Origin: Bacteriovoracaceae bacterium
Lineage (GTDB): Bacteria > Bdellovibrionota > Bacteriovoracia > Bacteriovoracales > Bacteriovoracaceae
Reading direction: 5' to 3'
Length of the DNA stretch: 64,000 nucleotides
NCBI GenBank assembly: GCA_018649885.1
Contig: JABIHA010000036.1
Span: 62,001 to 126,000 of the forward strand
The notes under the pieces: model-generated
The model's input: only the letters and a program-made list of their open reading frames with translations
What the model was told of the DNA's origin: nothing
Database searches by the model: none
Translations under genes and position numbers: made by a program
In this document: positions 8,820 to 60,983 of the stretch, one piece after another
How positions within the stretch are numbered: the first letter of the stretch is position 1
Layout of the letters: each line of letters opens with the position of its first letter

Positions 8820-8872
8820 ATTAAGAGAGCATTAACGCTTTGCATAGAGTCATAGTAAAAATGATAGGGTTT

Positions 8873-33294: not shown

Positions 33295-36200
33295 ATTATT
33301 AGAACATCAATTCTTTTATTTTTTATATTTGTATCACTGTCAGTTTTTTCTGCTCCAGAGAGTTATTACAGTTCTAGATATGATAATAATGATGTAATTG
33401 CAGAGAGTAGTTCAGGTGCTGAACCACTGATAACATTTTCTCTAGGCGATGCAGTTTCTGCTCTGGAAGGTGTTAGCTCTGGCGAAAAGCCTCCGGGGAT
33501 TTATTTTCTTCCTGCATTTGATAGCAATATCAACCCGAGTCCAAGTCCAAGACGTTTATACCAAGCACGGTCAGGTGGCGTAGGTGTTGGGGAGTATGAA
33601 ACAAAAGTGGCAGCGGCAGCGAAAACAGAAGTGAGCGTTGATTTTGTTTTAACTTCCATTGATGAGAAAGCATCATCAAATTTTTATTTGCAAAAATCAA
33701 TTGCTCATTGCCAAAGTTTTGTCGTTGCAGGTGAGCTGGGTTCAAGGCCCACGACAATGGGGGACTTTACCCAATGTATGGCACAGTCAGTGGCAAGTCC
33801 TCCAAAAGCTACCGAGTATGACCGAAAAGAGACAGAAGAGTTTTTAAGAGAAAAAGCAGAAATGCATGGTGGAATTTTAAAACGATATCTTAGAGGTCAA
33901 ATGACGATCTCTCCCACTGTGGCCCAGCATTATATAGAAAAAGAATGTGAAAAACTATCCCCACAAAATGGTTTGGCCCCTAGAATGCGGGTGGCGAGAA
34001 CGAGTCTTCCTACAATGACTGCCAGTGGAACTATAATATCAATGGGTGTGACCACACCACTCACTGATGTTGAAAAAGAAGAAGATTGTCTGTTCCGTGC
34101 CCAGGAATATAAAAAGTTTCATGGGCTTGCCAATAACAAGAGAGACTTAGAAAGAGATTTTGATCGTTACAAGGACTACGTCCTTGGTGATGTCATGGAC
34201 CTTGATCCTAGTGATGGCATATCATTTGAGAGTAATGGAGACATTCAAGGAATCGTAACATCGCTTAGACCTGACTTGATGGACTACCCAGCACCGGGAA
34301 GACGTTACCGTGATGAGAGTGACATACCTTCTCAAGCAGCACTTGAAGACAATACTGAAGTTCACGATTCTTTTCTTAGGTGTCCTGATATTGATGCTCT
34401 ACCAACAGGACATCAATACGGTGCATGCTTAGCACAGAGTATTGGATCTCCTTATCAATCTGTAGCTAGGATTTTAAATAATCAAACTGGCTCCAGGGAG
34501 ATGCTATTTTGTAATACCTTGGCGCTAAATGGTATTACAGAATTTTATAAAAACTATATTATGATGTTTGGTAGCTCGCCAGTGTTAGCTGACATTGAAA
34601 GACTCAATGATGATTGTATTTGTCCAGAGGAAGAACGAGAATCTAGAGGGTGTGGTTGGTACACCGATGTATTTAATGATCTAGATGGACTCCCTACTGA
34701 GGATGCACATACTCAGTTTCAAAAGAATTACCATAGCTACCCGAGTGCACATCTTAAACGGGCGCTACTCCAGGCATTAAAAACTCCAAAAAAGGCATTA
34801 CTGGATAATACTCAGCCTAAGATCACAGAAAAAAACTATGAACATAGACTTGGTTTTCCTCTTGCCAATACTCCTTATAAGCATCTTTCAACTTGGAGTT
34901 TAAAAGATATTGTTGATAAAGCATCTGAAATAGAAGATTTCAAAGTCTCTACTCTTGGCAGGGCCTGTCGCCTTGACAACTGGTCGGCTTCCACTGCAGG
35001 TGATGTAGTGGCTGGTGTAACTGGCGCAGCAGCCAGCGCCGGAGCATGGCTAGTATCAGATTCGGTTGATGAGGATGAAACAGATGAAGAAAGGGAAGTT
35101 CGAGAACTTGCTGAAAGACAGACACAAGAGAGTATTAGCTCAGCCTCAACCGCAGTGGGGGAAGGTATGGCTACCTCTTGGCGGCTTAAGTATGGCTATT
35201 GCCCAATACCGCACACTGAAATGGAAAGAATGAGTAAGTACTATACTGAGCTTCAAGGGGCGATTGCATTAAGAGAAAATGTATTTCCTGAGTACAACGC
35301 CCAAGTGGACTATATGGCCGAAGGTGAAAAAGTCATGAAGTCTAAAGAGTTTTCAGCCGGTGAGGGAAGAGAGTTTTTAAATTCTGTTTCTGAAAAGCTT
35401 GGTGAACAAATTGCTGGGGCAGGTATGAATCCACATGAGTGGGTGGGCTATGATTCTGATCTATTTGATGAAAGAGTGAAAGGACCCCTTTCTGAAATTT
35501 TTAACGAACCTGCTGTTCAAAAAATATATGCTGAAGGGATTGCGGGTTATCCTTCAATCCAAGAAGAAGCAGAAAAGAAAAAACAGAAGTGGACGCAGAT
35601 TATTGCAGGAATGTGTAGTGCCAGAAACCCCTGGGACCCTTGTTACAAGCAAAAGCCAAATGCGACTATGAGTTGTGATAGAAATAAAGCTAAAGGTAAA
35701 ATATCTTGTTTAACAGCAGGTAAAATGACTGGTCTTGTAAAGGCCACTGTTAAACACGGCAATCACTACTTTGATGGAATGGAAGAGTGCATGGCCTCAG
35801 CCGTTGGACTAAAGGGGATGGCCACAGGTATGGGGATGGGAGCTGCAGCTCTGGGGTGTCTGGCCATTGGTGTCGGCGGTGTCGCCTTAGCTGTGCCAAC
35901 TGGTGGAGTTTCTTTTATGGGTGCTATGGGAATTGGTGGAGCCATGTGCGCGCCTCTTCTTTATTATGATTATACAGAGAAAGCCAAGGCCGGTACGGAT
36001 CTTGCTTTTGTTAGGGCCTGCGTTCAAGCAGGATCTTGTAGCGCAGAGGATTTAACTACTGAAGGTAGTGCATATAATTCGGCAAGATTTTGGTTTCAAT
36101 TTGCTGCCGTTGCCGAAATTGGTGGAGCAGCTGTAGATATAATTGGAGCGGGCATTGATGTGGCCAAGGTTATGAGACATTTTCCCAAGGCCATGAGAAC

Positions 36201-36915
36201 TGTGAGGGCCCAGAGTGCTGTAGCAGGAGCACTTCCAAGCTTGAGAGGTGTCAAAACGTCAGAGGTCACCAAGGCTTGGGATGCTCTTGTGTTGGCAAGG
36301 GAAATGGAAGCCATAAAAAATGGGACACATTTAAGGCATATAAGTGATGAAGATTTAGAGAAAAATTTTATAGAATTTTTACAAACAATGCAAAGAGCTA
36401 ATCCTGGAAATCCAGAAATGGCGACAGGGCTTTTAAATGATCAATATTTTAAAAGTATGATGAGTGTAATTGGAAAAATTGATCTAAATGATCTTCCAGC
36501 AGATGAGGCATTGAGGGTGAGGTATCTGGCCGAGGCATTTAATCTCTCTCCAGATGCTGCTAAATCTCTCGGCAAAAACCTTGATCTATTCATGGGAGAT
36601 CTAGCTGACCCAATAGGTTTTCAAAAACTAATGGCCCTTGCCACAAAAGCTGATCCACAAGCAGCCGACCTTACTAAGCTAGATGAATTTTTTGACCCAG
36701 ATGCAATTGCTCGCGCCATAGAAACCGATCCTCTTTTGGCCGGGAAGTCAGTAGATGAAGTCTTTGCGGAAAGAACTGTTGCGATGTTTATTAGAGGACA
36801 AAATGGTGATTTGGCAAGTCCCAAGTACTGGGATCATGTCTATGAATTGATATCAACTCCAGGTAAATCTCGAAGGGCCTACGATGAAATTGTCACCGCT
36901 TGTAAGGGCGGTTAG
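33295..36915 (+). CDS. Giant secreted Cys-rich hypothetical protein (~1206 aa) with hydrophobic hairpin; paralogue of 57975..60983
   Basis: Frame is open from TAA 33289-33291 to the track start at 33607. ATT 33295/33298 after GAGGT gives signal peptide IIRTSILLFFIFVSLSVFSA. Shares motifs with the 57975 protein. Confidence 0.75.
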   Translation: MIRTSILLFFIFVSLSVFSAPESYYSSRYDNNDVIAESSSGAEPLITFSLGDAVSALEGVSSGEKPPGIYFLPAFDSNINPSPSPRRLYQARSGGVGVGEYETKVAAAAKTEVSVDFVLTSIDEKASSNFYLQKSIAHCQSFVVAGELGSRPTTMGDFTQCMAQSVASPPKATEYDRKETEEFLREKAEMHGGILKRYLRGQMTISPTVAQHYIEKECEKLSPQNGLAPRMRVARTSLPTMTASGTIISMGVTTPLTDVEKEEDCLFRAQEYKKFHGLANNKRDLERDFDRYKDYVLGDVMDLDPSDGISFESNGDIQGIVTSLRPDLMDYPAPGRRYRDESDIPSQAALEDNTEVHDSFLRCPDIDALPTGHQYGACLAQSIGSPYQSVARILNNQTGSREMLFCNTLALNGITEFYKNYIMMFGSSPVLADIERLNDDCICPEEERESRGCGWYTDVFNDLDGLPTEDAHTQFQKNYHSYPSAHLKRALLQALKTPKKALLDNTQPKITEKNYEHRLGFPLANTPYKHLSTWSLKDIVDKASEIEDFKVSTLGRACRLDNWSASTAGDVVAGVTGAAASAGAWLVSDSVDEDETDEEREVRELAERQTQESISSASTAVGEGMATSWRLKYGYCPIPHTEMERMSKYYTELQGAIALRENVFPEYNAQVDYMAEGEKVMKSKEFSAGEGREFLNSVSEKLGEQIAGAGMNPHEWVGYDSDLFDERVKGPLSEIFNEPAVQKIYAEGIAGYPSIQEEAEKKKQKWTQIIAGMCSARNPWDPCYKQKPNATMSCDRNKAKGKISCLTAGKMTGLVKATVKHGNHYFDGMEECMASAVGLKGMATGMGMGAAALGCLAIGVGGVALAVPTGGVSFMGAMGIGGAMCAPLLYYDYTEKAKAGTDLAFVRACVQAGSCSAEDLTTEGSAYNSARFWFQFAAVAEIGGAAVDIIGAGIDVAKVMRHFPKAMRTVRAQSAVAGALPSLRGVKTSEVTKAWDALVLAREMEAIKNGTHLRHISDEDLEKNFIEFLQTMQRANPGNPEMATGLLNDQYFKSMMSVIGKIDLNDLPADEALRVRYLAEAFNLSPDAAKSLGKNLDLFMGDLADPIGFQKLMALATKADPQAADLTKLDEFFDPDAIARAIETDPLLAGKSVDEVFAERTVAMFIRGQNGDLASPKYWDHVYELISTPGKSRRAYDEIVTACKGG

Positions 36916-37798
36916 GCTCACACTCCTATTTTTCTTAATGATAAATTCTAATATTGAGGCAGGTATTTTACAGCACTGTGTGGCCCTTATGATGATAAAG
37001 GGAGAAGATCTTGTTGTGGCCCAAATGAAATCTCATGAATATGGGGTTCACGAGTTTACACTAGAAAGTGGTGAGAAAATAAAATTGGCCATGGGGGATA
37101 AGCTGGGTTCTGGATTTTTTGGAAGCGTTTATGACCTTGAAGCTGTTGATGGGCTTGTGCGTGAAGGTTTGATGGATACAGGGTTTGAAGTTGTCGCCAA
37201 AATGCCTCACAATGATAAATACCAAGAAGCCGTTAACTTGGCCGTTTATGCACACTCAGCAAACCCAGCTGAGGCCAAGCTCTATGATGACTTAGTCTCA
37301 CTTCGTGCACCGGTATCAAGATCGGATCACTATCCAGCTGATTGGCCAGAAGATTTTATTCCAGTAGCTCCCATACTAAGAACACTCGATACGACAGAAG
37401 GGACAATTCTTTTAAAAGGAAAAGTCCCAGGTAAGTCTCTTAAAGATTTGGCAAAGCTTTATGGAGACACACTTCCTCCAGACATCGAAAAAGGATTAAA
37501 GGATATATTTTCTTGGGTAACAGCTGTAGATGAAAATGTACCCGGTGGGGCCAAGGCCAGACAAGCTCTGGCAGATGGTGGTGAGTTTAGTGGCAGTGGA
37601 TTCTCTACTGATATCAGACCACCAAATTTAGTGTGGGTAGATGACCCTGTACTATTAAAGAATTTGGGATTAAAAGGACCTGTTTTTATGCTCTACGAAT
37701 TCTCACAAGTGCCAGCAAATTTACACTGGTACGCCGGTAAAGGGTTTCCCAATTACCTAGAAGAGTTTAAAACCTATATGAGAGGCAGCATCAATTAA
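36884..37798 (+). CDS. Secreted protein-kinase-like protein
   Basis: LGSGFFGSVY (Gly-rich loop), VVAK, AEAKLY (alphaC Glu), TDIRPPNLV (catalytic loop), YEF in the DFG position; signal peptide ending NIEA. Confidence 0.7.
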   Translation: MKLSPLVRAVRLTLLFFLMINSNIEAGILQHCVALMMIKGEDLVVAQMKSHEYGVHEFTLESGEKIKLAMGDKLGSGFFGSVYDLEAVDGLVREGLMDTGFEVVAKMPHNDKYQEAVNLAVYAHSANPAEAKLYDDLVSLRAPVSRSDHYPADWPEDFIPVAPILRTLDTTEGTILLKGKVPGKSLKDLAKLYGDTLPPDIEKGLKDIFSWVTAVDENVPGGAKARQALADGGEFSGSGFSTDIRPPNLVWVDDPVLLKNLGLKGPVFMLYEFSQVPANLHWYAGKGFPNYLEEFKTYMRGSIN

Positions 37799-37803
37799 AA
37801 AAG

Positions 37804-39564
37804 TTAGCCCCAATTGGAGTAGTCAATTCTTTCGTTAAATAGAATTAAAACACCTCGGTCTAATGCTATTTTATAAAAAGTTTTTCTCAGCACATCGTCT
37901 TCAATATGGAGTTTGTCTATCCATTTATTGAAAATAGAAGCAATACTTGGATTCATGGTAGCAACAACGCCTTTTGTTGAATAACCATTAATTCTTATTT
38001 TGTAGTGCTCTGATGTGCCTGCAACTGCCAGGGCCAGGATTCGAAGGACTGTGTATTTGAGGCCAACAGGAAGTTTTACCTCAGAGTCAAAAAATTGAAG
38101 CATATTGTCTAAAAGAACTGCACATTTTCCATCCTCACAGCCATTCTCAATAATTTCTTTAACTTCATTCATAAGAAGGAAGAAGAAAGAGTTTTTCTTT
38201 AGCTCGTGATCACCCATTGTTTTTTGAAATAATTCAGATGATATGGTCTTGTGAAGGCCTAAGGATTTTAAAAGGCCTTTAAAAAATAAACTATAGTCCT
38301 TATTTTCAGTGTTTCTTGATTCTAGTAGGTTCTTCCAAATTCCGATTAGCCCCATTAGGCGATCAGCATTGAAGTCACTGGCTCTGCTAGTGTGTTCTTT
38401 TACATATTCACATATATAACTCGGGACTGTGATATTTTTTTCAAAACATAGATAGAGAAAATCAAGGTATAGTAAGAAAATTGTTTGAATTTCTAATTTT
38501 GAAGTTGAGGCGTCATCGCCCCACTCACATTTGCAGGTGTTGTGTGAGAACTGCTTAACATCATCTTGGGCCTCGTCTCCAAAAGTGTAGTGAAGGGATA
38601 GAAATAACCAAAAACAATTTAATCTAGATTTATTTATATGAATGTGGTTTTCCTCAGATTCTTCTTCTTCATGCGGTATATGCACAAGGGTCTGTTCAAT
38701 GAATGTTACGATTTCATCATCTTTTTTGATGTCTTTGAATTTGTGTGTAAGCTTGCTGTATAAAATTGAAAAGCGGTGAAGCTCGTCTTTAGTAAAAGCT
38801 AAATGGGCAATTTGGTTTTGATGAAAAATTAAACTTCTTTGAAGATAAATCTCCCAATAGCTCGATTGAGGGAGTTCAAGACCTAAAAAGTCAGAAAGTT
38901 CTTTTAAAAACTTGGCCTCTTCATTCGTTATTTTTTTGTCGTGCTGATATTCGATTTGTACACCGAGGGAAAAGAGCATTCGCCTTTCTTTTTCAGTATA
39001 TTCAACAGTTTTGAAAACAGGATCGTCATGAAGAGAGAGAATAGCATCGGAAATTCTCTCACATCCAGTGATATCAAGTTTCAAAAGCTCTCTTAATTCA
39101 TGGAGGAATTTAATTTTCTCTAAATCATTTTTTGTATTGGAAATGCAAAAAATGTAGGCGATTTTATAAGCAGTATACTTCTCAGCTCCAGTTGAAAAAA
39201 AATTTGGTAAGCGGGAATCTAGGTCACTATCTAAATCAAGATTCTTTCTTATTCCTCCATCTGTCAGGCTGAGGCTCACTTTTCCAGCTGCTCTAGGGCT
39301 TTGATTTTCTTTCTTTAGACCTTTTAAATATTCTTCACTAATATTACGACTTGTATAGTGTTTCATTTCATTCGGGAGTTGCAATAAGCTCTCAAGAGAG
39401 CTAACAATCGTAGGATTTTGGGTCCAGCTAAATGGCATTGATTCGAGCATTTTTAAAACCGCAATTTTTTGTTCAAACCCAAAAGATGATTCACTGTTTA
39501 TGCTACATCCAAGAGGGCAGTCTGGTATTACAAACAAGCTCTCTTTTGATCCTACCTCTTCCAT
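37804..39564 (-). CDS. Hypothetical helical protein with TerB-like motif(s)
   Basis: HDKKITNEEAKFLKELSDFLGL resembles the TerB D..I...E..FL..L...LGL pattern; degenerate copy EKIKFLHELRELLKL. Confidence 0.5.
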   Translation of the reverse strand: MEEVGSKESLFVIPDCPLGCSINSESSFGFEQKIAVLKMLESMPFSWTQNPTIVSSLESLLQLPNEMKHYTSRNISEEYLKGLKKENQSPRAAGKVSLSLTDGGIRKNLDLDSDLDSRLPNFFSTGAEKYTAYKIAYIFCISNTKNDLEKIKFLHELRELLKLDITGCERISDAILSLHDDPVFKTVEYTEKERRMLFSLGVQIEYQHDKKITNEEAKFLKELSDFLGLELPQSSYWEIYLQRSLIFHQNQIAHLAFTKDELHRFSILYSKLTHKFKDIKKDDEIVTFIEQTLVHIPHEEEESEENHIHINKSRLNCFWLFLSLHYTFGDEAQDDVKQFSHNTCKCEWGDDASTSKLEIQTIFLLYLDFLYLCFEKNITVPSYICEYVKEHTSRASDFNADRLMGLIGIWKNLLESRNTENKDYSLFFKGLLKSLGLHKTISSELFQKTMGDHELKKNSFFFLLMNEVKEIIENGCEDGKCAVLLDNMLQFFDSEVKLPVGLKYTVLRILALAVAGTSEHYKIRINGYSTKGVVATMNPSIASIFNKWIDKLHIEDDVLRKTFYKIALDRGVLILFNERIDYSNWG

Positions 39565-40388
39565 TTGAACCTCTTCTTCTTGATAATTAGATCGTCTGCA
39601 TTGTTTTGATCCATCATGCAGTTATCTATATGCACATCTTTTTCTCTCGTCACTTCAACTTGCTGAGGGAAATAGTGGTAGTTACTTAGTATTTTTTTCT
39701 TACTGCTTGAGTACATAGCAATTTTAAATCGGTATTCACCAATTAGGACATCTCCTCCATTGAAAGGGTTGGGACCTAGCGTGAATTTTTCAACTCTGTG
39801 GTTATAGTAATCTTTTTTATAAAATACAGATAAGGTTATTTTTCCAGGTTGGTTAAAAGAAATATCCCTTATTTCGATATTTTCAATTTTCTTTCGGTGG
39901 CCATAGGGTGGGCATTTGAACCTTGTATGTGAGGGGGCAACACTCGCGGCACGGTAATTAACTTGTAAGTTTGCCCTTTCCACTTCATTTGGCCTGATTT
40001 TAATTTTTCCCCTGTAACCTCGGTTTGTGAAAAGTGGAATATAAATGGTGCCCACTCGAGCGCGGTGTCCTTTGATAATTTTTTCAGTTTCGATTATCCA
40101 TGAGTCTACATGGAATTCTTCAGCTAGTTTTTTGAGGTCATCTCTTTTGAGTCTTGGAATACGAAATTGAATAAATAATCCTCTGGAGATTTTTCGATTA
40201 AAGCCGCCCTTCAAGCTACTCCAGGGTTTTTCTTTGGCCTTGATAATTTCGGCGTTCTCTATAAAAACATTTGCAATGCCATCTTTAATTGTTACTTCAC
40301 TGTGTTTTGCACACGAAGCGTATAGGCCCAATAAGAGCAGTAAACAGAAATTATCGAAATTTACAAAATTTAGGGCAGATTTTTTCAT
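39552..40388 (-). CDS. Hypothetical lipoprotein
   Basis: Hydrophobic stretch plus lipobox LYASC; overlaps the downstream gene. Confidence 0.7.
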   Translation of the reverse strand: MKKSALNFVNFDNFCLLLLLGLYASCAKHSEVTIKDGIANVFIENAEIIKAKEKPWSSLKGGFNRKISRGLFIQFRIPRLKRDDLKKLAEEFHVDSWIIETEKIIKGHRARVGTIYIPLFTNRGYRGKIKIRPNEVERANLQVNYRAASVAPSHTRFKCPPYGHRKKIENIEIRDISFNQPGKITLSVFYKKDYYNHRVEKFTLGPNPFNGGDVLIGEYRFKIAMYSSSKKKILSNYHYFPQQVEVTREKDVHIDNCMMDQNNADDLIIKKKRFKWKR

Positions 40389-40533
40389 ACTAATATAGTA
40401 GCTGGTAGTGCTATTAATTTGGGTTAATTTTTTTCCACTTCGGCGATATGCTGAGAATTATCATGAACAAGAATGCTCCGCGGCTACTGGGGCGGGTTTT
40501 GCGCTACTGTCCTAATCCGGTCTAAAATAGTGC

Positions 40534-41211
40534 ATGGATATTAGTGAACAGGGACTCAAAGAGTTTCGAAAATTAAAAGGCCCCAGAATAAGTGAATTAG
40601 AGGCTGGGCCAATTCATTCTGACTCCACAGGTGATGAGACAGAGTACAAACAGGTTTTCCTTACAAAGAAATTTGATAAAAAGAGAAAAGATCAAATTCA
40701 GGTAGGTCACTTTATTGATGATTTTTTTGAAAAAGATCTCAGCATTCATGTTGATCCTGTGGCCCCTAGCTTCAAAAGTCATGGTCCGGGACGCCCCAAA
40801 AAGGCCAGTGAGGAAAAAGTACGTTTTGTAGGGATGAAGCTATCGCCCAAGTATATTGCTATTTTAAAAAAATTTACATTTGGTAAGGGAGTAGGCTCAA
40901 AGGTTCGATTTTTGATCGATAAGTATGAAGACTATACGCTTAGGGAACAAAAGCAGGTAGCAGTGGTAAAAACTCAAATTGGTAGTCTTGACTTTGAAAT
41001 TAAAAAGTACTCTTCAAGGTTTAAAAAAGCTGAAAAATTCGAAACCAATCAACTACTGCTTGATGATATTTATAAGAAATCCTCAGAGATAAGACTTCTC
41101 ATATCCCTACTCCACATTGAGATCTCCCAGTATTCAGATTTTCTATCTAACTGCGAGATGAAAACCCTAGAGTTTGCTATGGGGTTTGCACCAAATGAGA
41201 GCGTTCTTTGA
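40534..41211 (+). CDS. Putative DNA-binding protein (AT-hook-like GRPKK followed by RHH-like segment and helical C-terminus)
   Basis: GPGRPKK...VRFVGMKLSPKYIAILKKF..GVGSKVRFLID; TTGA overlap with the recombinase gene. Confidence 0.55.
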   Translation: MDISEQGLKEFRKLKGPRISELEAGPIHSDSTGDETEYKQVFLTKKFDKKRKDQIQVGHFIDDFFEKDLSIHVDPVAPSFKSHGPGRPKKASEEKVRFVGMKLSPKYIAILKKFTFGKGVGSKVRFLIDKYEDYTLREQKQVAVVKTQIGSLDFEIKKYSSRFKKAEKFETNQLLLDDIYKKSSEIRLLISLLHIEISQYSDFLSNCEMKTLEFAMGFAPNESVL

Positions 41212-42191
41212 AGAGCATCGATTCGCGTTTAAAAAGATCAGTGGCGAACTCACAAGGTGGCCATGACCGAGAAAAAATTTATTATGGCTTTCTTGCCAAT
41301 TATAGGTCAGTGCATACAAGGTCTGCTTATCAAAGGGACTTAAAAGAGTTTCTGGCATTTTTAAGAGATAACTTTTCAGCTCAAAATGAATTTACATGCT
41401 CTCACTCTCATGTCGTTGCCTTCAAAGAGTATCTCTGCCAGAAAGGGCAGGGTAGTGTTAGTGGTTTTAGTCAATCAACTATAAATCGCAAGCTGTCATG
41501 CTTAGGGGCCTTCTACAGCTATCTTTTTGAACACGGATATGTTGAAGATATTCCTACAAAAAGAATTCGAAGATTTAAGATAAAAAAAGAAGTTAAAACC
41601 TCCGATCTATCTAATGATCAAGTTACCTCTCTTTTTGACTGTATTGACATCTCACATGGCCCAGGGCTCATGCACCGTGCAGTGCTGAGAGTATTATTTT
41701 CGACCGGGATGAGGCACTCTGAAGTTGTCAGTTTAAAATTCAAAAACTTTTGTTATGAAAACAAATTTAGCGTCATTAAATATATCGCCAAAGGTGGAGT
41801 TTCAATAGTGACTCCACTTAGCAGTAATGTACTTTCTGAATTGGGTGAATATTTTGATTGGTGTCAGAAAAATGGTTATAGTATGGCGCTTTCAGATTAT
41901 ATATTTAGGCCAACTAAGAACCCCAAAAACGGAAACCTCAATAAAAAATTAAAACCGAGCTCACTCAACTACATTATTAAAAAATATGCAAAACTATCTG
42001 GCGTGAAGGGTAGTATAAGTGTTCATAGTGCCAGGGCCACAGTTATTGGGAATCTTCTTGAGAGCGGAGTTTCCATTGATAAGGTAGCTGACTTTGTTGG
42101 GCATAAAGATATTTCTATGACTCGTTCTTATAATAAGAGGGTGACAAAACTCGCTGAATCAGCCGCATTCTTGGTTAATTATTCGGAGTGA
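41208..42191 (+). CDS. XerC/XerD-like tyrosine recombinase
   Basis: SAM-like N-terminus (TRSAYQRDLKEF, STINRKLSCL); catalytic R (TGMRHSE), K (AKGG), HSAR, GH and Y (TRSY). Confidence 0.92.
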   Translation: MKSIDSRLKRSVANSQGGHDREKIYYGFLANYRSVHTRSAYQRDLKEFLAFLRDNFSAQNEFTCSHSHVVAFKEYLCQKGQGSVSGFSQSTINRKLSCLGAFYSYLFEHGYVEDIPTKRIRRFKIKKEVKTSDLSNDQVTSLFDCIDISHGPGLMHRAVLRVLFSTGMRHSEVVSLKFKNFCYENKFSVIKYIAKGGVSIVTPLSSNVLSELGEYFDWCQKNGYSMALSDYIFRPTKNPKNGNLNKKLKPSSLNYIIKKYAKLSGVKGSISVHSARATVIGNLLESGVSIDKVADFVGHKDISMTRSYNKRVTKLAESAAFLVNYSE

Positions 42192-42282
42192 AATCGGTCA
42201 ATTTTACAAGTTGAGCCAGTTTACAGATGGATACAATAATACAACAACGCGGCGCGCCTTAGGTTTCTGGGGCAACCACGAT

Positions 42283-42723
42283 ATGAAGTACTACATGAAA
42301 ACTACAGTCATATTTTTTGCTGCTTTAATGTCATTTGGCCTTTTTGCCCAAAATGCTGTGGTTACTAACTCTGTTTCGGAGCCTTTTTTTTGCAATCCAA
42401 AAATAAGTGATTCCCGGCTTTCTCCCTTTATTGAAAAATTGAAAGACTACACTCTTCGAAATAAAGGTAAGAAAGTTGCTAAATTGATCAGCTTTCCTAT
42501 CTCCGTTGAATTTGAAAATGGTGATAAACAAGTCATAACAAATATGTCTTTTTTCACACTTTTTTTTAATCGTATTTTTACACAGAAGCTGCGAGCGCAG
42601 CTTCTCGAAGATAGTTTCAAACCCACTGGTTGTGATAAAGATAGAGTGATTTTTGGTAATGGAGCTATAAGCATCGCCCATAAATACGGGAAATTAAAAA
42701 TTTCTACTATCAATACATTTTAG
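42283..42723 (+). CDS. Small secreted hypothetical protein
   Basis: Signal peptide MKTTVIFFAALMSFGLFA from ATG 42283/42295 (track start 42211). Confidence 0.65.
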   Translation: MKYYMKTTVIFFAALMSFGLFAQNAVVTNSVSEPFFCNPKISDSRLSPFIEKLKDYTLRNKGKKVAKLISFPISVEFENGDKQVITNMSFFTLFFNRIFTQKLRAQLLEDSFKPTGCDKDRVIFGNGAISIAHKYGKLKISTINTF

Positions 42724-42835
42724 TTAATTCCATCCGCACATATTTTTGGCAAACCACCCTCCGAATGATTCGGTTTTAGACGTCCAACTCATTGAACTCA
42801 AACTATAAATTAATTAACCATCAAGGCTGACCTAG

Positions 42836-43150
42836 AGAGGCGGAACTCTCTATTATACAACCGGTGGCAAAACTACTTGGAATCAAAGTCCTGGCTTTGT
42901 CTTTACTTCAACTGATACCCATTTTAATGACGGTGGTTTTGTGCAAGACAAATACACTAATAATTCTCTAACTTGTTCTGATAAAGCAGGTGAAAAGGGA
43001 CTCATTGCCTTTCCTATTATTAGAGACGGAGCAGTTTATAAAACGGGTTCAGTTTTTTCTACAGACGGATTACCGTGGTTCCTTTCAGCACACATCACTT
43101 CTGTTGTTGTGACTCAAAAAGATCAGACATCAAATACTGGTTTTGGATGA
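42836..43150 (+). pseudogene. Probable gene remnant
   Basis: Frame is open from TAG 42833-42835 (RGGTLYYTTGGKTTWNQSPG...) with no clear RBS; its stop TGA lies inside the 50-bp repeat. Confidence 0.35.
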
Positions 43151-47826: not shown

Positions 47827-47843
47827 ATATAAGGACTATCAAC

Positions 47844-50212: not shown

Positions 50213-50226
50213 CTATTTAGAAACTT

Positions 50227-51699: not shown

Positions 51700-51793
51700 A
51701 TTTTGCTCCCTAAAAATAAATTTTCTTTATTATACTCAAAATAAAAATTGAAGGGAGAATTTATCTATGGAGGTATTAATTATTTAGATAATT

Positions 51794-53341: not shown

Positions 53342-54402
53342 GGGCTTAACTCAAACATTTTATCGATTGCTCTTTTCGCCTTTAAACGAGTCGACTCCTC
53401 AACAAAGACTTCTTGATCTGCTCTGGGATTTTCAAATACCTGGATAATTTTATCTAGGCTATTTAGTTTCATATACTCACATAAGCGGCAGGCACCAATG
53501 AAGTTCTTTTCCTTCTCTTCAACTTCTAGTCGGCTAACGAGTCCACACTCAGTCAGCATCATAAAGTAAGGTGCCTCAGTTTTCCGGACGTAATCCATCA
53601 TGGCCCCCGTGCTGCCAACAAAATCACTTTTTTTAGTCACATCAGTAAGACACTCTGGGTGAGAGACCACTTTTAAACCAGGATAACGGATTCTCTGCTC
53701 ATCAATTTTGTTGTGATCAAATTGATCGTGCACAAAACAAGTTCCATCAGAACTTACAATCTCTTTATTTATGCCACGCTTTTTCATTTCAATGATAATA
53801 TTGTCGGCCATCAAACGATCGGGGATAAAAATAATTTTTTCAGCATCGAGACTTTCAATAATTGAATAGACATTTGTAGAAGTGACACAAACATCTGATT
53901 CGGCCTTAACCTCTGCAGTGCTGTTAATATAACAAACCACGGGGCACCCTGGATGCTCCCGTTTTAACTCTTTGACTTGGTCTGCATTTATTGAGTCGGC
54001 CAGTGAACAAGCAGAGCCTCTATCGGGTACAAAAACTCTAGCTTTTGGGCTTACTATTTTTGCTGTCTCTGCCATAAAAACAACTCCTGCAAAAATAATC
54101 ATAGAGGCCTTGGAATCTTTTGCGGCCAAAGACAGTGCATAGGAATCACTCTTAAAATCGGCAACTCCGTGAACAATTTCAGGTTCCACATAGGAATGGG
54201 CCAGTATCACAGCATCGTGCTCTTTTTTTAATCGATTGATTAGCAGTGTTTTCGGAGCAATTTTTTGACACTCTTCATAGGTCCACTTCCTTGAACTGTT
54301 GCAAGTAAGATTCATGAGTGATGAAAATAAGCGGTCTGCTTCGGCCTCTAGGGCCTCATTTGAAAAGTTTTCAGTGTGAATTTTATTGTGATCCGCGTCC
54401 AT
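53338..54402 (-). CDS. nadA: Quinolinate synthase
   Basis: ILAHSY, FMAETAK, ACSLAD, YINS, CFVH, HPEC, CEYMK (three Fe-S Cys). Confidence 0.96.
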   Translation of the reverse strand: MDADHNKIHTENFSNEALEAEADRLFSSLMNLTCNSSRKWTYEECQKIAPKTLLINRLKKEHDAVILAHSYVEPEIVHGVADFKSDSYALSLAAKDSKASMIIFAGVVFMAETAKIVSPKARVFVPDRGSACSLADSINADQVKELKREHPGCPVVCYINSTAEVKAESDVCVTSTNVYSIIESLDAEKIIFIPDRLMADNIIIEMKKRGINKEIVSSDGTCFVHDQFDHNKIDEQRIRYPGLKVVSHPECLTDVTKKSDFVGSTGAMMDYVRKTEAPYFMMLTECGLVSRLEVEEKEKNFIGACRLCEYMKLNSLDKIIQVFENPRADQEVFVEESTRLKAKRAIDKMFELSP

Positions 54403-54542
54403 AAATACCCTTAATAAAGCCTATTCTTATCATAAAGTTTTTAAAAATTCACCTCATGATGCTCCCCCTAATGCTGATCATGTTGCCACATATACAAGCT
54501 TTGCTAGTATAATAACAATTCGAAACCACTTAAGAGGTAAAT

Positions 54543-56180
54543 ATGTCTAGGAAAACCAGTTATGAGTACGATTTTGTCATCGTAGGAAGCGGCTTTGGCG
54601 GCAGTGTCTCAGCAATGAGATTGGCCCAAAAAGGTTATAGGGTTGCCATCGTAGAGCAAGGTGTTGACTACAAAAATACTGATTTTCCCAAGACAAATTG
54701 GAATGTAAAAAAATACCTATGGGCTCCGGTGCTGCGATGCTTCGGGATCATGCGAATTACTCTCTTAAATAAAGTGATGGTTTTAAGAGGTGTTGGAGTA
54801 GGGGGCGGAAGTTTAGTATACGCCAACACTTTAATGCAACCAGAAGAACATATTTTCAAATCCAACTTTTGGCCCGCAGGAAAAGATTGGAACAAAGAGC
54901 TTGGACCTTTTTTTGATTTGGCCAAAAAAATGTTGGGAGTAGTAGATAATGAAATTATGGAAGACGGTGAGCTAGCACTAAAAGCAGTGGGTGAAAAAAT
55001 GGGCTGTGCTGACACTTTTCACGCTACAAAAGTAGGTGTCTATTTCAACACCCCCGGAAAACTTCAACAAGACCCCTTCTTTGGTGGAGATGGCCCCGAT
55101 CGTGAAGGCTGTGATCTTTGTGGAGGATGTATGGTTGGCTGCCCAACTGGTGCTAAAAATACACTCGACAAAAACTACCTTTGGTTTGCAAAAAAATGGG
55201 GAGCTAAAATATTCTCTGAAACTTGTGTTGAAAAAATCACTCCCGAAGGTGAGGGCTACACAATTACCACAAAAAACTCAACCTCTTGGTTACCCTGGAA
55301 GGGACCAACTTTTAAGGCCAAAAAAGTGATCTTTTCAGCTGGAGTGCTGGGAACAATGGATCTTCTTTTAAAAAATAAATATGTTCATAGAACTCTTCCT
55401 CAAATCTCTGACAAATTAGGCCACGTAGTCAGGACAAATGGAGAAAGCCTACTGGGGGCAACCTCATTTAAAGAAGAAATTGACATGTCTAAAGGGATTG
55501 CTATCGGTGCGGCCATCCACCCAGATGAGCATACTAAAATAGAGGCCGTGCGCTACTCGGCTGGCTCTGATTCTATGAGGCTTTTGGCCATTCCATTAAC
55601 AGGAAAGGGCAATTTCATTACCAGGCCTATAAAGTTTCTCTGCAATATGGTGATCCAATTCCCAAATGTGGTTAAACTCTATTTAACTCCTGATTGGGCG
55701 AAAAAATCTCTAATTCTATTAGTTATGCAGTCCCTTGAAACAAAAATGAATTTAACACTGGGATGGTCTATTTTTAATCCCTTTGGAAAGAGCCTAAAAG
55801 GAAAGCTAAACCCAGGTGAAGAACCTGTCCCAAGCTACATTCCGATAGCTCAAGAAGCAGCAAAAACATTGGCCACAGAGGTTGGTGGTATTGCTCAAAA
55901 TATAGTGCCCGAAGTTTTACTTCAAACACCTGCCACCGCCCATATCTTAGGAGGAGCAATCCTCGCAGAAAGTGCAGCTGATGGTGTGATCAATTCTAAC
56001 CATGAGGTTTTTGGTTACAGTGGCCTTTATGTAATGGATGCTAGTGTCATCCCTTCAAATTTAGCTGTGAACCCATCCCTTACGGTCTCGGCAATTGCAG
56101 AAAGATTTGCATCATTATTTGAAAATAACCCCCAGGTTGACGATAAATGGAAAAAACCCGAAATTAAATTTACTGTGTAA
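54543..56180 (+). CDS. GMC oxidoreductase, cholesterol-oxidase (ChoD)-like
   Basis: IVGSGFGGSVSAMRL, GVGGGSLVYANTL, C..CG.CM.GC..GAKNTLDKNYL, TAHILGG, VNPSLT. Confidence 0.88.
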   Translation: MSRKTSYEYDFVIVGSGFGGSVSAMRLAQKGYRVAIVEQGVDYKNTDFPKTNWNVKKYLWAPVLRCFGIMRITLLNKVMVLRGVGVGGGSLVYANTLMQPEEHIFKSNFWPAGKDWNKELGPFFDLAKKMLGVVDNEIMEDGELALKAVGEKMGCADTFHATKVGVYFNTPGKLQQDPFFGGDGPDREGCDLCGGCMVGCPTGAKNTLDKNYLWFAKKWGAKIFSETCVEKITPEGEGYTITTKNSTSWLPWKGPTFKAKKVIFSAGVLGTMDLLLKNKYVHRTLPQISDKLGHVVRTNGESLLGATSFKEEIDMSKGIAIGAAIHPDEHTKIEAVRYSAGSDSMRLLAIPLTGKGNFITRPIKFLCNMVIQFPNVVKLYLTPDWAKKSLILLVMQSLETKMNLTLGWSIFNPFGKSLKGKLNPGEEPVPSYIPIAQEAAKTLATEVGGIAQNIVPEVLLQTPATAHILGGAILAESAADGVINSNHEVFGYSGLYVMDASVIPSNLAVNPSLTVSAIAERFASLFENNPQVDDKWKKPEIKFTV

Positions 56181-56323
56181 TTACAAGTATATAAACATTA
56201 CAATGACCCGCCGCGTCATTATAATGTTTTATCCCTCCTACTCTAAAAATAATACAGAGTGCCAAACTTCACATTAGCATAACGCATCTCAGGTGATACC
56301 AAAATATCACTGAGGAGAGAGCA

Positions 56324-57958
56324 TTGTTTAGCAAGCAGATGAAAGTCAGAAGGTTTACCTTTTTATGGATAACCGCATTTTTTCTAGTTAATACCGCTTC
56401 CAGCAACTGGTGCCCAGCACTTACCAAACTTCAAGACGAAATTACTGATCTAGCAAAAGCAAAAGGTGAATTTGCCTTTGAACTCAAATACTCAAGCAGA
56501 ATTACACATCTAAGGCATTGGGCCGGAAGACTTAGGGATGCCAAGTGGGTAAGCCCCACAGCTCTTAAATACAAAATCGAAACATTTTTAATTTCAAAAA
56601 ACATATCCGGACTTAGAGGTCTAATAGCTCCTCTTTTTGGAAGGGTAGAGGTTTCCTATAAATTTTTAGTTCACACAGAGGGACTTCTAAAAAGCATCGA
56701 TGATATTGAAAAAATGCTTATCAAATCAGATGATCTGGCAGTCTCTGCTGATGAGCTGGCAGAGCTCACTTTAAGTATCGATAGGTTAACTGAAATGCTC
56801 ACAAGTAGGAGTGGACTTCTCAAGCTGCTTCCAAGTAGCAAAGCTAGTGAGCTTGAAGCACTGGCCACTGGACTTAAAAGTGGCGCGATTTCTCCAAGAA
56901 CTGGAGTGGCCGCTCTAGAATGGACAAGGTCTTTAAAAACCTATCTCACTTCAGTCAGACAATACTTTTTAAAAATCTTCGGAGAAAATTTTCCTCAATA
57001 TTCAATTGCTAGATCTTATATGGAAGCTTCCTTTGGAAAAAGAATGTACTCCCAAGCAAGTGGAATGCTGGAATCTGCTTTTGAGGCCCCCGCACTTAAA
57101 AAAGGCGAGTGGGAAGAGTTAGTACAAAGACTTGAGAAAATGTTAGGCTGGAATACCGAAAGGGCCACAAGCTTTCCAGCTCTTGATCCACAAAACCTTG
57201 GAAGGCCTTCACTCGAAGTTCTAGAGACATTTAAAAACTCCCACCCTCTGGCCAGAAGAGCGGCCATCTACAGAAGTTACCTTCTTGCTGTTAGACAAAC
57301 AATGTCAAAAACTGTTCTAGATATTTTAGCATTTGAACGAACAGGTGATTTATTTAAAAAATTCAAATTTTTAGATCCAGAGCTCGTTGATGATATTATG
57401 GAGGCCTTCTACCGGCTTGATGCGAGAGAATATTTTCTAGATGTCAGTGATATTGTCTACGCTGTAGAAATGACTACGGAAGCTAAGTATGCACAGTTTC
57501 TAAGAAAATTTGGCTACAAAGAAGATGATTTTCTGACAGCTTTTTTCACTAACCCTGATGCCAGACCTCTATGGAGAGAATTTAAAGACATTGCCAAGGC
57601 CACTGATCAAGATATTTTAGAGGCAATGGAAAAAGCAGAAAAAGCTGGCAGAGAAATTGGAATTATTTCTCCCACAAAGGGCCTGGACTTTTCAAAACTT
57701 ATGGCCACAAGTGTTCACCTTGCGATCGCCGGAGGTGTACTAAAAGTTGGCCATGATAAAGTCAAATCACCAATCTCAAGCGCAGCAACTTTTGCTTACC
57801 AGAAAGTCAGATCAATGATCACTGGCGATGACATGCTTTTAGACGAAAATATCCCAGTGGATCTTCAAGATTCTGAAACGCTCGAGCGTTTAGAAAGAAT
57901 GGATAAATTAGTAGACCAAACTATAAAAATAATTGATGGGCAAAATTTAGAAGAATAA
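56324..57958 (+). CDS. Secreted helical hypothetical protein with C-terminal hydrophobic segment
   Basis: GAGGAG RBS; signal peptide followed by NWCPAL; late segment ATSVHLAIAGGVL. Confidence 0.75.
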   Translation: MFSKQMKVRRFTFLWITAFFLVNTASSNWCPALTKLQDEITDLAKAKGEFAFELKYSSRITHLRHWAGRLRDAKWVSPTALKYKIETFLISKNISGLRGLIAPLFGRVEVSYKFLVHTEGLLKSIDDIEKMLIKSDDLAVSADELAELTLSIDRLTEMLTSRSGLLKLLPSSKASELEALATGLKSGAISPRTGVAALEWTRSLKTYLTSVRQYFLKIFGENFPQYSIARSYMEASFGKRMYSQASGMLESAFEAPALKKGEWEELVQRLEKMLGWNTERATSFPALDPQNLGRPSLEVLETFKNSHPLARRAAIYRSYLLAVRQTMSKTVLDILAFERTGDLFKKFKFLDPELVDDIMEAFYRLDAREYFLDVSDIVYAVEMTTEAKYAQFLRKFGYKEDDFLTAFFTNPDARPLWREFKDIAKATDQDILEAMEKAEKAGREIGIISPTKGLDFSKLMATSVHLAIAGGVLKVGHDKVKSPISSAATFAYQKVRSMITGDDMLLDENIPVDLQDSETLERLERMDKLVDQTIKIIDGQNLEE

Positions 57959-57974
57959 ATAAGAGGAATTAGTT

Positions 57975-60900
57975 GTGAAAGAATTATTGGTATTACTCAC
58001 ATTTTTGATGGCATCACAAGCGGCATTTAGCTACGGTCTTCAAGGTTCAGGTTTTTACTTTCCTGACTCACAAAGAAAGCAAAGAAAGGTCCAGCATGCC
58101 AGTGACAAGAAGCTCTATGTCAGATCAGTAAATGATCTTGAAATCTATATCGGTTCAAAAGCAAAAGAAAAAGTTTCTAGTTTTATGTTAGATATCTCTG
58201 ATGCACTAGACAGAGAGGATACTTGGACAAAAAACACTTATGTCTTAAAAATGATCGAAAAATGCTCTAAAGAAGATATAAGTAGAGGGGAGTTCTTGCA
58301 GTGTATGGCAAATGGTTACGCAAATCCTCCCAAGATCACCAGCACATCTCGAAGTGAAAGTGTTAGCTCTCTTGAAAAAACGGTAGAGTCTTACTACGAA
58401 ACTCTGAGCTCAGTAATGAGAAAAGAAAATAGAAGCTTAAGAGCAGGATTAAACCCAGAACAAATAATAGCTAAATGCCAAACATTAAAAAGATACAGAA
58501 CTAGATGTGAAGCTACTGCCAATACATTTTCTAAATTCTATGATGCTCTTTATGGCAAAAGAAACCTAGAAAGAGATTTCGAAGAGTTTGCTCTTTTTGC
58601 TCTTGATAGCTTTGGTCTATCTGACAAAAAGATTATGATGGGAGTCAACGGAGTTCGAGGATATAAATTAATCAGCTGGTATGGTCAACCTCTAAAAGGC
58701 ACCTCTGAAAACCCTATTACTAGCTCAATGAAAACTGCATATCTTAGAGAAATTGATACAAATTACTCTTTTAGGGCCGGTGAATGGGCCTGCTCAACAC
58801 ACGAGAGAAATTTTAAATCCGGTGAAACCACAAGAGTAACCGAAGCACTTGAAGTAGGACAGGAACTTAAGGCCTATCTCAGTATGTACCCAAAGGTGAA
58901 AAGGGCCAGTTACTTGAACCTTGCAACTGCTGTAACTATCAAAGAATTTTACAGATCATATAAGTACCAAATGGGTGCTCTTCCCAATAATAATATCATT
59001 CTTGCAAAGAACCCTGCTTGTAAGCATTACGAAGGTCAATTAAAAGAGCTCACAAAGCCCAGCATGGAGCAAGAAGTAAACAGACTTGAAAATAAGCTAC
59101 GCTTCTACTCTTCAAAAGAAAAAAGAGAAAGTAGCCAGCAAAGTAGATACTTTGCTGAGAAAAACTTTGTTGATATTTATGACTTACAAAAGCAGGGGAA
59201 AAAATCAACTGCCGGAACACTTGGCGATGATCTTACAAAATACACTTTTAAAGATCTAATGGACGCTTATAAAGACCAAAAAGAATGCTGGGGCCAAAAA
59301 TCTTATTATGAAAGAGTAACAAGATCCATGAACAAAAGCGTTGATCAAGTATGGCCTCATTGTACTAAATTCTACGCGAATGCTGAGCTCACTCAGGATG
59401 TCATCAAGGAGGCGATCATGGCCCGTGAGGGACAATTTCCACTTCTAAGAATGAACTTCGATGTAGAAAAAAGAGATAAATTTTGGGCCAAAACTTTTGA
59501 GATAACTGATGGAAGAGAGTTTTTAAACAAACTTTCAACCAGCACCTACCAAGGACTCAATCTTTATAGTAAATCAAGTCACACCAAGTTTTTAACAAAG
59601 CTTGTATTGCCACAAATGCGGTTGAAAGGAAAAGAGATGGAAGAGCTTATCTCGGATACTTGCTCTGCACGATTTTTAAATAACGAAAATCACACCTCTT
59701 GTCCTAATAACGGAAAAATGTGTTGGGAAACTCTTGTAAGCTTCACTCCTCTTGTGGATTATATGGAAGAAAAGTCTTCGCCTACCTTTAATGGATTTAA
59801 GGGATGCATGGAAGCTACATTTAAAAAGAGAAGAAGAAATAGAACTATCGGATTTATCGCTGGCGCCGTGGCCTGTGTAGGTGGATCTATAATAACAGCT
59901 CCAGTAACAGGCCCTTTTGCTCCCTATATTGCAGCAAGCTGCGGCCTAGGCCTTTGGCAAGGGATTGATGTTCGCGAACAAACATTGGCATTTGATAAAA
60001 CAGAGCAAACCCTAAGATGCCTATCAGCAGGAAGCATTTGTAGTGATGAAGACTTCAATGAAGCGGTAAACGAATTATGGTGGGCCGTCTTTGGAAAAAA
60101 AGTTGGCCTTGTTGGTGAAACATTGGGCCTAGGAATGGCCACCAAGTTTGGGACAAGATTATTAAAAATTCTACCTCACTTGCGTTTGCAGGACCTCTCA
60201 GATCTAAGACAACTCAGAACAGTATTTGATATCGCCTCAGGATTTGATGGTGTAGGTGACGATTTAGCAAAATTAACCGCCAGAGAAATGGATTGGTTTG
60301 CTGAAGGGCTCGTGCGCACAGATATGGAAGACTTAGTCAGGGCCGGAAGAGCAACGGCAAGTGAAATGGAAACATTTCTCCGAAAATCTGATGTAATAGA
60401 AAAGGCCACAAGAAAGGCGATGGAGTTTGCAGACTTTCTAGAAGAGAGTGCTCCCAAGTTGGCAGCTGATCTTCCAGATGCTCTAAAAGGTATGAAACTT
60501 GAATTACTTCTCAGATCAATTCACCGAATTAACCCACTGAGAGTACCCAAAGATACTGCTGCCAAATTAAGATATTTTGAGGATCTCTTTGGAGCAGGAG
60601 AGGCGAAAGCTGTCGCCCAGGTCTACGACGAATTGTGGACAAGTGCTAGGCACGCAGATGGTCTACTAGAAATCCTGGCCAAAGCCGGGTCAAGCCTTCC
60701 AGCTGATGTTAAAGACTTCTCAAAACTACTAGATTTAAAGAAAATCAAACTCGACCCAGATGTAATGATGGCCTGGGAGAGATCGGGCGCAAATGGAACC
60801 TTTGACGAATTCGCCAAAGACGTCTTGTCCGAGAGATTATCTATGGTATACGAGCTTTCAAAAATGCACAGCATGGATGGCGGCTTATCCATCAAGGTAA

Positions 60901-60983
60901 GTGAGTGGTTTTTCGGGACTCTACAAAAAAGTGGAAGCTCACTTAGAAAATCCGTGGATAATTTGTTAACCTCTTGTAGATAG
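57975..60983 (+). CDS. Giant secreted Cys-rich hypothetical protein (1002 aa); paralogue of 33295..36915
   Basis: GAGG RBS; signal peptide (AAFS); hydrophobic hairpin IGFIAGAVACVGGSIITAPVTGPFAPYIAASCGLGL. Confidence 0.8.
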   Translation: MKELLVLLTFLMASQAAFSYGLQGSGFYFPDSQRKQRKVQHASDKKLYVRSVNDLEIYIGSKAKEKVSSFMLDISDALDREDTWTKNTYVLKMIEKCSKEDISRGEFLQCMANGYANPPKITSTSRSESVSSLEKTVESYYETLSSVMRKENRSLRAGLNPEQIIAKCQTLKRYRTRCEATANTFSKFYDALYGKRNLERDFEEFALFALDSFGLSDKKIMMGVNGVRGYKLISWYGQPLKGTSENPITSSMKTAYLREIDTNYSFRAGEWACSTHERNFKSGETTRVTEALEVGQELKAYLSMYPKVKRASYLNLATAVTIKEFYRSYKYQMGALPNNNIILAKNPACKHYEGQLKELTKPSMEQEVNRLENKLRFYSSKEKRESSQQSRYFAEKNFVDIYDLQKQGKKSTAGTLGDDLTKYTFKDLMDAYKDQKECWGQKSYYERVTRSMNKSVDQVWPHCTKFYANAELTQDVIKEAIMAREGQFPLLRMNFDVEKRDKFWAKTFEITDGREFLNKLSTSTYQGLNLYSKSSHTKFLTKLVLPQMRLKGKEMEELISDTCSARFLNNENHTSCPNNGKMCWETLVSFTPLVDYMEEKSSPTFNGFKGCMEATFKKRRRNRTIGFIAGAVACVGGSIITAPVTGPFAPYIAASCGLGLWQGIDVREQTLAFDKTEQTLRCLSAGSICSDEDFNEAVNELWWAVFGKKVGLVGETLGLGMATKFGTRLLKILPHLRLQDLSDLRQLRTVFDIASGFDGVGDDLAKLTAREMDWFAEGLVRTDMEDLVRAGRATASEMETFLRKSDVIEKATRKAMEFADFLEESAPKLAADLPDALKGMKLELLLRSIHRINPLRVPKDTAAKLRYFEDLFGAGEAKAVAQVYDELWTSARHADGLLEILAKAGSSLPADVKDFSKLLDLKKIKLDPDVMMAWERSGANGTFDEFAKDVLSERLSMVYELSKMHSMDGGLSIKVSEWFFGTLQKSGSSLRKSVDNLLTSCR

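Follow-up and report, generated by a model that had tools for sequence, protein, structure and literature searches.

Large, probably exported proteins of Bdellovibrionota as candidate carriers of exchangeable, cysteine-tagged cargo

A stretch of 64,000 nucleotides (nt) from a Bacteriovoracaceae genome (assembly GCA_018649885.1, contig JABIHA010000036.1, positions 62,001 to 126,000 of the forward strand; hereafter the window) holds two very large genes for exported proteins, each lying tightly against the gene of a smaller exported protein. The question raised by this locus is whether both arrangements represent the same device, a large membrane-inserting protein that delivers or anchors a variable partner. 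An earlier reading of the letters alone (the sequence-only reading) had proposed as much, with prey as a plausible destination. The large proteins are called here carriers 1 and 2, and their neighbours partners 1 and 2. The comparisons below place the carriers in an undescribed family of the phylum Bdellovibrionota and suggest that its members very probably dock variable cargo at the tail through a Cys-bearing helix, as modelled for one pair.

Two paralogous carriers and their family

The colinear motifs noted by the sequence-only reading are all present in the translations of the two copies, at the positions given for them. BLASTP aligns the carriers with 22% identity over 468 columns (expectation value, E, 7e-9) and with 25% over 219 (E 4e-7); in phmmer carrier 2 scores 22.7 bits against carrier 1, the best of 300 shuffles of carrier 1 reaching 1.5. 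A profile built without both carriers and their four closest relatives recovers the two among the open reading frames (ORFs) of the genome (E 2e-24 and 3e-17). By these alignments the proteins are true paralogues, as had been proposed.

Carrier 1 has a signal peptide only if translation is counted from an ATT codon at position 33295, 6 nt 3' of the sequence GAGAGG. The first GTG of the frame is at 33607; standard gene callers begin there and so lose the signal peptide (P0007, 1102 amino acids, aa). This ATT, a rare start codon preceded by what is likely a good ribosome-binding site, appears to be where the gene starts, and it is identical in contigs from three other marine runs. An independent metagenome locus (L160) carries partner 2 upstream of carrier 2, the same proteins in the same order; a metagenome scan for the window's subfamily matched the window's own locus only. 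An assembly artefact as the origin of the window genes was rejected, L160 and the contigs of the three other runs being in agreement.

As single-sequence queries, carrier 1 found only itself (none in 150 genomes of the taxonomic family) and carrier 2 only itself, with 1 weak hit in 60 relatives. Together with L004, a broken paralogue from the source genome, the weak hit L003 (883 aa) led to a four-row core profile, which was iterated. With 21 rows it matched 366 representatives at E 0.001, the best 150 of the 366 being used; a 69-row profile (A8) matches 134 of the 401 genomes of the phylum and, within the taxonomic family, 103 of 237, the source genome (G000) included. Scoring was confined to 3 to 5 candidates in each genome, which makes the copy numbers minimum values. 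The phylum is taken to be Bdellovibrionota from two members: one, 60% identical to the carrier of the Bdellovibrio-type locus L081 described below, comes from a Bdellovibrio record, and another is labelled Halobacteriovoraceae. Pfam gave no trunk match in any member scanned, NCBIfam no match among the 69 members of A8, and a search of Protein Data Bank (PDB) sequences with A8 only weak hits of the coiled-coil type (best E 8e-4, a designed protein). No description of the family was found in literature searches covering papers outside subscription. By these searches the family is undescribed and uncatalogued, as the sequence-only reading had held, and present across the phylum Bdellovibrionota.

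Members share a common plan. The signal peptide is followed by an N-terminal part that is variable and rich in Cys, then by a conserved core containing Pro-x-Leu and two Cys, and by the Gly/Ala hairpin; beyond this come a further Cys-bearing helix and a third, weakly hydrophobic segment. Signal-like N-termini, assigned by inspection and with a simple hydrophobicity rule rather than with SignalP, are found in both window copies and in most full-length members. The hairpin had been likened to those of alpha-pore-forming proteins. Its occurrence is borne out, a charge-free run of at least 30 aa being present in 117 of 138 members longer than 400 aa, and the hydrophobic segments are rich in Gly, Ala and Cys and of moderate hydrophobicity (Kyte-Doolittle 1.5-2.1); no specific fold match was found with a whole-model search. 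The predicted model of member P0020 (736 aa, 64 alignment rows; mean predicted local distance difference test score, pLDDT, 80; predicted template modelling score, pTM, 0.62) is nearly all helix, with long helices at 501-538, 540-577 and 585-613 and the hairpin where the first meets the second. Searched whole, this model had no Foldseek match at E 0.001 (XaxA, 6gy8, E 1.1, template modelling score 0.06), and VIA returned generic two-helix hairpins only (best Z 8.8, root-mean-square deviation 2.8, 78 aligned, the rows covering residues 516-618); this points neither to a new fold nor to one different from those toxins. The fold of carrier 2 predicted from two sequences was unusable (pLDDT 31), and its atlas feature hits, all below 0.9 (PT-TG 0.81), were not used.

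Other members of the source genome include L004 (L004:6225-9171, contig C24), of the fused type and split into four frames (6225-7019, 7180-8007, 8046-8306 and 8284-9171); the breaks lie near single-base runs and denote either a pseudogene or an assembly error. Six more distant candidates in the same genome (C59:20402-23875, C72:114798-117923, C83:64326-67259, C54:62764-66105, C93:1427-3199 and C94:9644-11527) match at E 6e-7 to 5e-3 and none ends in Cys; those on C59 and C83 overlap a large downstream gene. Elsewhere, the members at L101, L102, L105 and L110 lie between a flagellin-like gene (by eye) and an untagged lipoprotein gene, and this subgroup may represent a different use of the trunk.

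Terminal cysteines, exported neighbours and shared cargo domains

The family occurs in two forms, a long one with a fused variable C-terminal domain and a short one with a Cys at the end. When a terminal Cys is defined as one in the last 8 residues and tail length is measured with a core-only profile, such a Cys is found in 3 of 5 members with tails below 20 aa (mostly fragments), in 53 of 64 with tails of 20-150 aa and in 16 of 24 with 150-300 aa, falling to 4 of 29 at 300-450 aa and 5 of 28 above 450 aa (9/57 for all tails above 300 aa); the background among long ORFs of the source genome is 207/2311. The terminal Cys pointed out in the two window copies is in this way a trait of short-tailed members at large. 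Both window carriers, with tails of 219 and 251 aa, end in Cys; the same holds for their four closest relatives (P0036, P0041, P0043 and P0063).

The long tails are mutually unrelated on one core. Kinase-like domains occur among them, with a papain-like peptidase in one member and a Pfam match to a PI3/PI4-kinase-like domain in 1 of 43; some have HExxH or GGDEF-like motifs by eye. A conserved group of fused members of about 1000 aa (L054, L055, L123, L124 and L134) has GGDEF-like tail motifs by eye and, for L054 and L055, no Pfam match. The GGDEF-like and HExxH labels are presumptive.

The sequence-only reading also implied that variable partners are found beside carriers more often than chance would allow. 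To count neighbours, 100 regions were chosen from the listed matches by frame length, not by neighbours, and pooled with earlier loci, giving 125 members, from which 5 cut at the 3' end were excluded. A tight exported neighbour was taken as a same-strand signal-peptide gene of at least 100 aa starting within 30 nt downstream, the signal peptide being called by the hydrophobicity rule and not by a trained predictor. Such a gene, mostly overlapping, follows 34 of 63 Cys-ending members and 3 of 57 others. Kin are not independent, so the count was repeated with one member per 30%-identity cluster, with 13/27 against 2/43; in a second batch of 21 loci, 1 cut member excluded, the figures were 10/14 and 0/6, 7 of the 10 being Bdellovibrio-type pairs. 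The association of carriers and partners stood for downstream genes. For the upstream arrangement of copy 2 no enrichment was seen: an exported upstream partner is found in 6 of 63 Cys-ending members and 4 of 57 others.

Among 40 tight exported partners, a Cys lies shortly after the signal peptide in 22 and 6-25 residues from the C-terminus in 21; 38 have at least one end-proximal Cys, the same rule giving 547/1339 for exported proteins of the source genome, a background inflated by spurious frames and missed lipoproteins. Many partners have no further Cys, and a short helix-like stretch with a hydrophobic face follows the tag Cys. The Cys-x-Ala-Leu that had been noted after the signal peptide is present in both window partners, but as a strict motif it was rejected, a hydrophobic residue being found at Cys+3 in 14 of 22 N-terminal tags. 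Since the Cys may lie at either end, Cys-x-Ala-Leu is best regarded as one form of a more permissive tag.

With two partners added by eye, the 40 became 42, which fall into 23 homology groups. Six of the 42 have matches among the fused tails of other members, of which 105 (including some duplicates) were compared: L015 (E 6e-35), L094, which is the Fic partner (6e-33), L044, a kinase partner (2e-7), L103 (1e-6), L049 (2e-6) and, weakly, L154 (9e-4). The same cargo therefore occurs both fused and split, with a Cys pair where the peptide link is absent; from these matches, fused and split forms exchange cargo domains, kinase and Fic among them. Pfam names 7 of 31 partners (DnaJ in 6, Fic in 1). 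A group of partners 400-500 aa long (L065, L066, L076, L077, L083, L154 and L157), in which several Cys are conserved and Pfam finds no match, recurs across genera.

A docking model from Bdellovibrio-type loci, and the genes of the window

At Bdellovibrio-type loci a 517-aa carrier with a VCK end overlaps the gene of a partner in which a signal peptide and a J-domain with HPD are joined by a linker of low complexity to a Cys helix at the C-terminus. The partner at L081 (5373-6161) and 15 aligned relatives (A12) are all exported J-domain proteins with HPD (HEA in L093), a long low-complexity linker and the Cys helix; export of an Hsp70 co-chaperone domain is in itself unusual. The gene 5' of the L081 carrier matches PDB entry 7oc9, Bd0675 (E 1e-87). 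Published tables list Bd0675, Bd0676 (1554 nt, annotated "tolA protein") and Bd0677 (annotated "DnaJ domain") consecutively (PMC2797640, PMC3627812). Because the Bd0675 neighbour, the gene order, the 1554-nt length and the overlap agree, the L081 carrier and partner are taken as orthologues of Bd0676 and Bd0677. As to the TolA label, no NCBIfam match was found in the 69 members of A8 and no Pfam match in the members scanned, a set outside which the L081 carrier itself lies.

A complex of L081 carrier residues 24-517 with partner residues 226-262 was modelled from custom alignments. Three runs scored 0.62, 0.61 and 0.62, the best of 3 controls 0.02; of the pairs used to calibrate such scores, 116 of 157 solved complexes reach the mark, against 2 of 215 mismatched ones, counts that hold roughly for custom alignments. 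The runs have at least 84% of contacts in common, with partner pLDDT at 60-62. The modelled interface joins carrier residues 421-425 and 480-516 to partner residues 248-261 and includes both Cys516 and Cys249. The carrier-partner complex envisaged by the sequence-only reading, with an inter-chain disulfide as a question, is supported in its docking by prediction for this one pair; the Cys-Cys contact did not appear among the best contacts listed.

Both proteins have been detected, Bd0676 with 16 and Bd0677 with 10 unique peptides (PMC12546842). The log2 level of Bd0676 is highest in attack phase (5.00) and is 4.31 at 15 min, 3.87 at 4 h and 4.52 at 7 h; Bd0677 shows the same low at 4 h and rise before exit (PMC12546842). 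Prey-free growth lowers both transcripts, to 0.29 fold (Bd0676) and 0.37 fold (Bd0677) (PMC2797640), and RNA-seq reads are 110 against 1 for Bd0676 and 25 against 8 for Bd0677, the order attack/growth being taken from the sheet name (PMC3627812). For a link of expression with predation, raised earlier, there is the attack-phase maximum of Bd0676 protein; the transcripts do not rise early in predation (see below). Bd0677 has been discussed in print as a chaperone gene (PMC2797640), the only main text among those searched in which it appears; Bd0676 was in none, and neither was found in the supplement of PMC5430801. Apart from this, the pair is known in print from annotation and expression tables only.

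The corresponding features of the window are collected in Table 1. The overlap of carrier 1 with a gene for a protein with a signal peptide, claimed earlier, is 32 nt long; that protein is at most a putative kinase. Partner 1 is kinase-like by eye only (motifs GSGFFG, VAK and DIRPPN), its identity being unconfirmed by Pfam, PDB sequences or a profile of the family's fused kinases, and a single-sequence search found no relative. The 16-nt spacing reported for copy 2 agrees with the coordinates, and partner 2 had no usable atlas feature hit. No RNA data set was listed as containing the locus. The pairing of carrier 2 with partner 2 is the weaker of the two: upstream neighbours are not enriched, so it leans on a single tag-like Cys and on four tagged upstream partners elsewhere.

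Table 1. Carrier and partner features in the window (positions counted from its first nucleotide)
Feature	Position	Strand	Description
Putative ribosome-binding site of carrier 1, GAGAGG	33283..33288	+	Likely, from the sequence
Carrier 1	33295..36915	+	1206 aa counted from ATT; signal peptide, Cys-rich helical trunk, hydrophobic hairpin, third hydrophobic segment, helical tail with TACKGG at end
Charge-free Gly/Ala hairpin of carrier 1	35815..35967	+	Residues 841-891, 51 aa without D/E/K/R
Third hydrophobic segment of carrier 1	36100..36156	+	Residues 936-954
Partner 1	36884..37798	+	304 aa; signal peptide; 32-nt overlap with carrier 1
Terminal Cys of carrier 1	36901..36903	+	Likely tether residue, by the L081 docking model
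Sole Cys of partner 1, residue 32 (HCVAL)	36977-36979	+	From the sequence
Partner 2	56324..57958	+	544 aa; signal peptide; ends 16 nt before carrier 2; no known family
Sole Cys of partner 2, residue 30 (WCPAL)	56411-56413	+	From the sequence
Carrier 2	57975..60983	+	1002 aa; plan as in carrier 1; tail ends in TSCR
Charge-free hairpin of carrier 2	59844..59966	+	Residues 624-664, 41 aa
Terminal Cys of carrier 2	60975..60977	+	From the sequence

Around these genes, a small regulator-like gene and a gene taken by eye for a tyrosine recombinase lie at 40534-42191, 2.7 kb after partner 1. Divergent from carrier 1, at 32246-32908 on the minus strand, is the gene of an exported 220-aa protein with four GGGH repeats and no Pfam match. 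A minus-strand fragment at 62501-62962 resembles, by eye, what we take to be the C-terminus of a transposase.

Mechanism, alternatives and relation to known systems

The reading preferred here is that of a modular, A-B-like delivery system. Both chains would leave the cytoplasm through Sec, judging from their signal peptides, which were predicted by inspection and with a simple rule. Once in the periplasm, which is oxidising, the tag helix of the cargo would pack on the last helices of the carrier, as in the L081 model, and the two terminal Cys may then pair up; a disulfide between carrier and cargo is probable. Published data on the Bdellovibrio orthologues suggest that the complex would be stocked in attack-phase cells. 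Upon contact the hairpin, from its anatomy, would insert in the prey inner membrane, and cargo that needs cytoplasmic partners (kinases, Fic, J-domains with intact HPD) would cross and be freed by reduction, by analogy with A-B toxins. ATP is absent from the periplasm and Hsp70 is cytoplasmic. Exported kinases, Fic proteins and J-domains would find neither there, and for this reason the work of the cargo is placed in the cytoplasm of another cell. Delivery into another cell is on balance favoured, and a similarly narrow preference is given to the mechanism as a whole, from insertion in the prey membrane to arrival of cargo in the prey cytoplasm.

A number of observations weigh against this reading. 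Most cargo has no known family, so that "toxic" is unproven; 36 of the 42 partners, partners 1 and 2 included, match no fused tail. No tight exported neighbour is seen on either side of 23 of the 63 Cys-ending carriers, yet one is present, Cys-tagged in 3 cases, at 7 of the 57 members that lack a terminal Cys, and also at L178. Within the window, the third segment of carrier 2 is below the hydrophobicity threshold, and a profile of 59 other tails ranks the end of carrier 2 only 40th, and that of carrier 1 386th, of 2311. The L081 complex model shows no Cys-Cys pair among its listed best contacts and covers a C-terminal tag, the window tags being N-terminal. In the published data Bd0677 protein, unlike Bd0676, does not drop at 15 min (3.40 to 3.41; PMC12546842), and neither transcript rises after 30 min of predation (Bd0676 0.91 fold, Bd0677 0.96 fold; PMC2797640).

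This lack of induction of Bd0676 on prey entry fits the main rival, in which the carrier would serve as an anchor within the envelope of the predator itself: the hairpin would stop transfer at the inner membrane and the tail would hold enzymes in the predator periplasm. Docking, tags and the exchange between fused and split forms are accommodated just as well, and the length of the hairpin would allow two membrane passes. The anchor is nonetheless considered unlikely. The segments are rich in Gly, Ala and Cys, only moderately hydrophobic and modelled as long helices; a J-domain with intact HPD needs Hsp70, which is cytoplasmic; and a high cargo turnover with an unchanging trunk is what conflict systems typically show (PMC3482391). 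The constant N-terminal trunk, the variable C-terminal domains and the presence of several divergent copies in one genome would also suit an ordinary polymorphic toxin in function, aimed at competitors, grazers or eukaryotic cells and not at prey; kinase, Fic and J-domain cargo could work in any cytoplasm. This seems quite unlikely, given that no immunity-like gene is seen (any tight downstream gene of at least 100 aa is present in only 5 of the 57 members without a terminal Cys, mostly fused) and that the Bdellovibrio pair tracks the predatory cycle. It is very unlikely that the neighbours are merely co-transcribed exported proteins, the terminal Cys serving folding or self-association and the large protein acting alone, for example as a pore. 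The 23 of 63 Cys-ending carriers with no tight exported neighbour on either side would be expected under that view, as would the abundance of end-proximal Cys among exported proteins of this genome; what speaks against it is the loss of the Cys where cargo is fused, the near-universal tagging of partners, the occurrence of the same domains fused and split, and a modelled interface that unites both Cys-bearing ends.

The delivery reading has parallels in several known systems. Binary toxins (anthrax PA with LF/EF, C2, iota) form a beta-barrel pore and dock their cargo non-covalently, and diphtheria-type toxins are single-chain A-B toxins. With the binary toxins the carriers share the use of one delivery chain for exchangeable enzyme chains from separate genes; unlike them, carriers are modelled as almost wholly helical and also exist fused to cargo. 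Long helices and a Gly/Ala hydrophobic hairpin recall alpha-pore-forming toxins and translocators (ClyA, XaxA, colicin and the translocators of type III secretion systems), with which neither Foldseek nor VIA found a fold match in searches with the whole model. Foldseek, VIA and PDB sequence searches likewise found no similarity of sequence or fold to disulfide-tethered A-B toxins; compared with these, the tether would join cargo directly to a helical hairpin carrier, by either cargo end, and in at least 23 partner groups. In typhoid toxin, PltA and CdtB are likewise separate exported chains whose disulfide is reduced on arrival (PMC6469816), which is demonstrated there and predicted for the carrier family. 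The polymorphic toxins exported by Sec and the type II secretion system resemble carriers in their signal peptide, constant N-terminal part, variable enzyme-like C-terminal domain and lineage-specific N-terminal domains; carriers differ from them in mostly having no adjacent immunity gene, in a trunk without catalogued domain and in a split form with separately exported, Cys-tagged cargo (PMC3482391). "Bdellovibrio" and "Bacteriovorax" do not occur in most of the main text of that paper. The family would accordingly combine the trunk and variable end of a polymorphic toxin with an A-B-like tether, the new element being a phylum-wide carrier with a modular cargo dock.

It is conceivable, if doubtful, that Bdellovibrionota possess a general delivery system built on a single carrier, in which any exported protein could be loaded onto the docking tail of a helical translocator by a short Cys helix at either end, fused and split forms would interconvert, carriers without neighbours would load tagged cargo encoded elsewhere, and the tethered J-domain of Bdellovibrio would hijack prey DnaK. 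Loading of tagged cargo from elsewhere would, if true, explain why predators export enzymes that need cytoplasmic substrates.

To our knowledge there is as yet no settled account of how periplasmic and surface-attached predators move proteins through the inner membrane of their prey. A 2026 review notes that predators modify the prey inner membrane and that further effectors and toxins await study (PMC13689555). The carrier family offers a concrete, phylum-wide candidate for this passage, and the terminal Cys together with the tag helix provides a rule that predicts which exported proteins are cargo. As the model predator has a single compact pair, Bd0676-Bd0677, both members of which have been seen as protein, the idea is directly testable.

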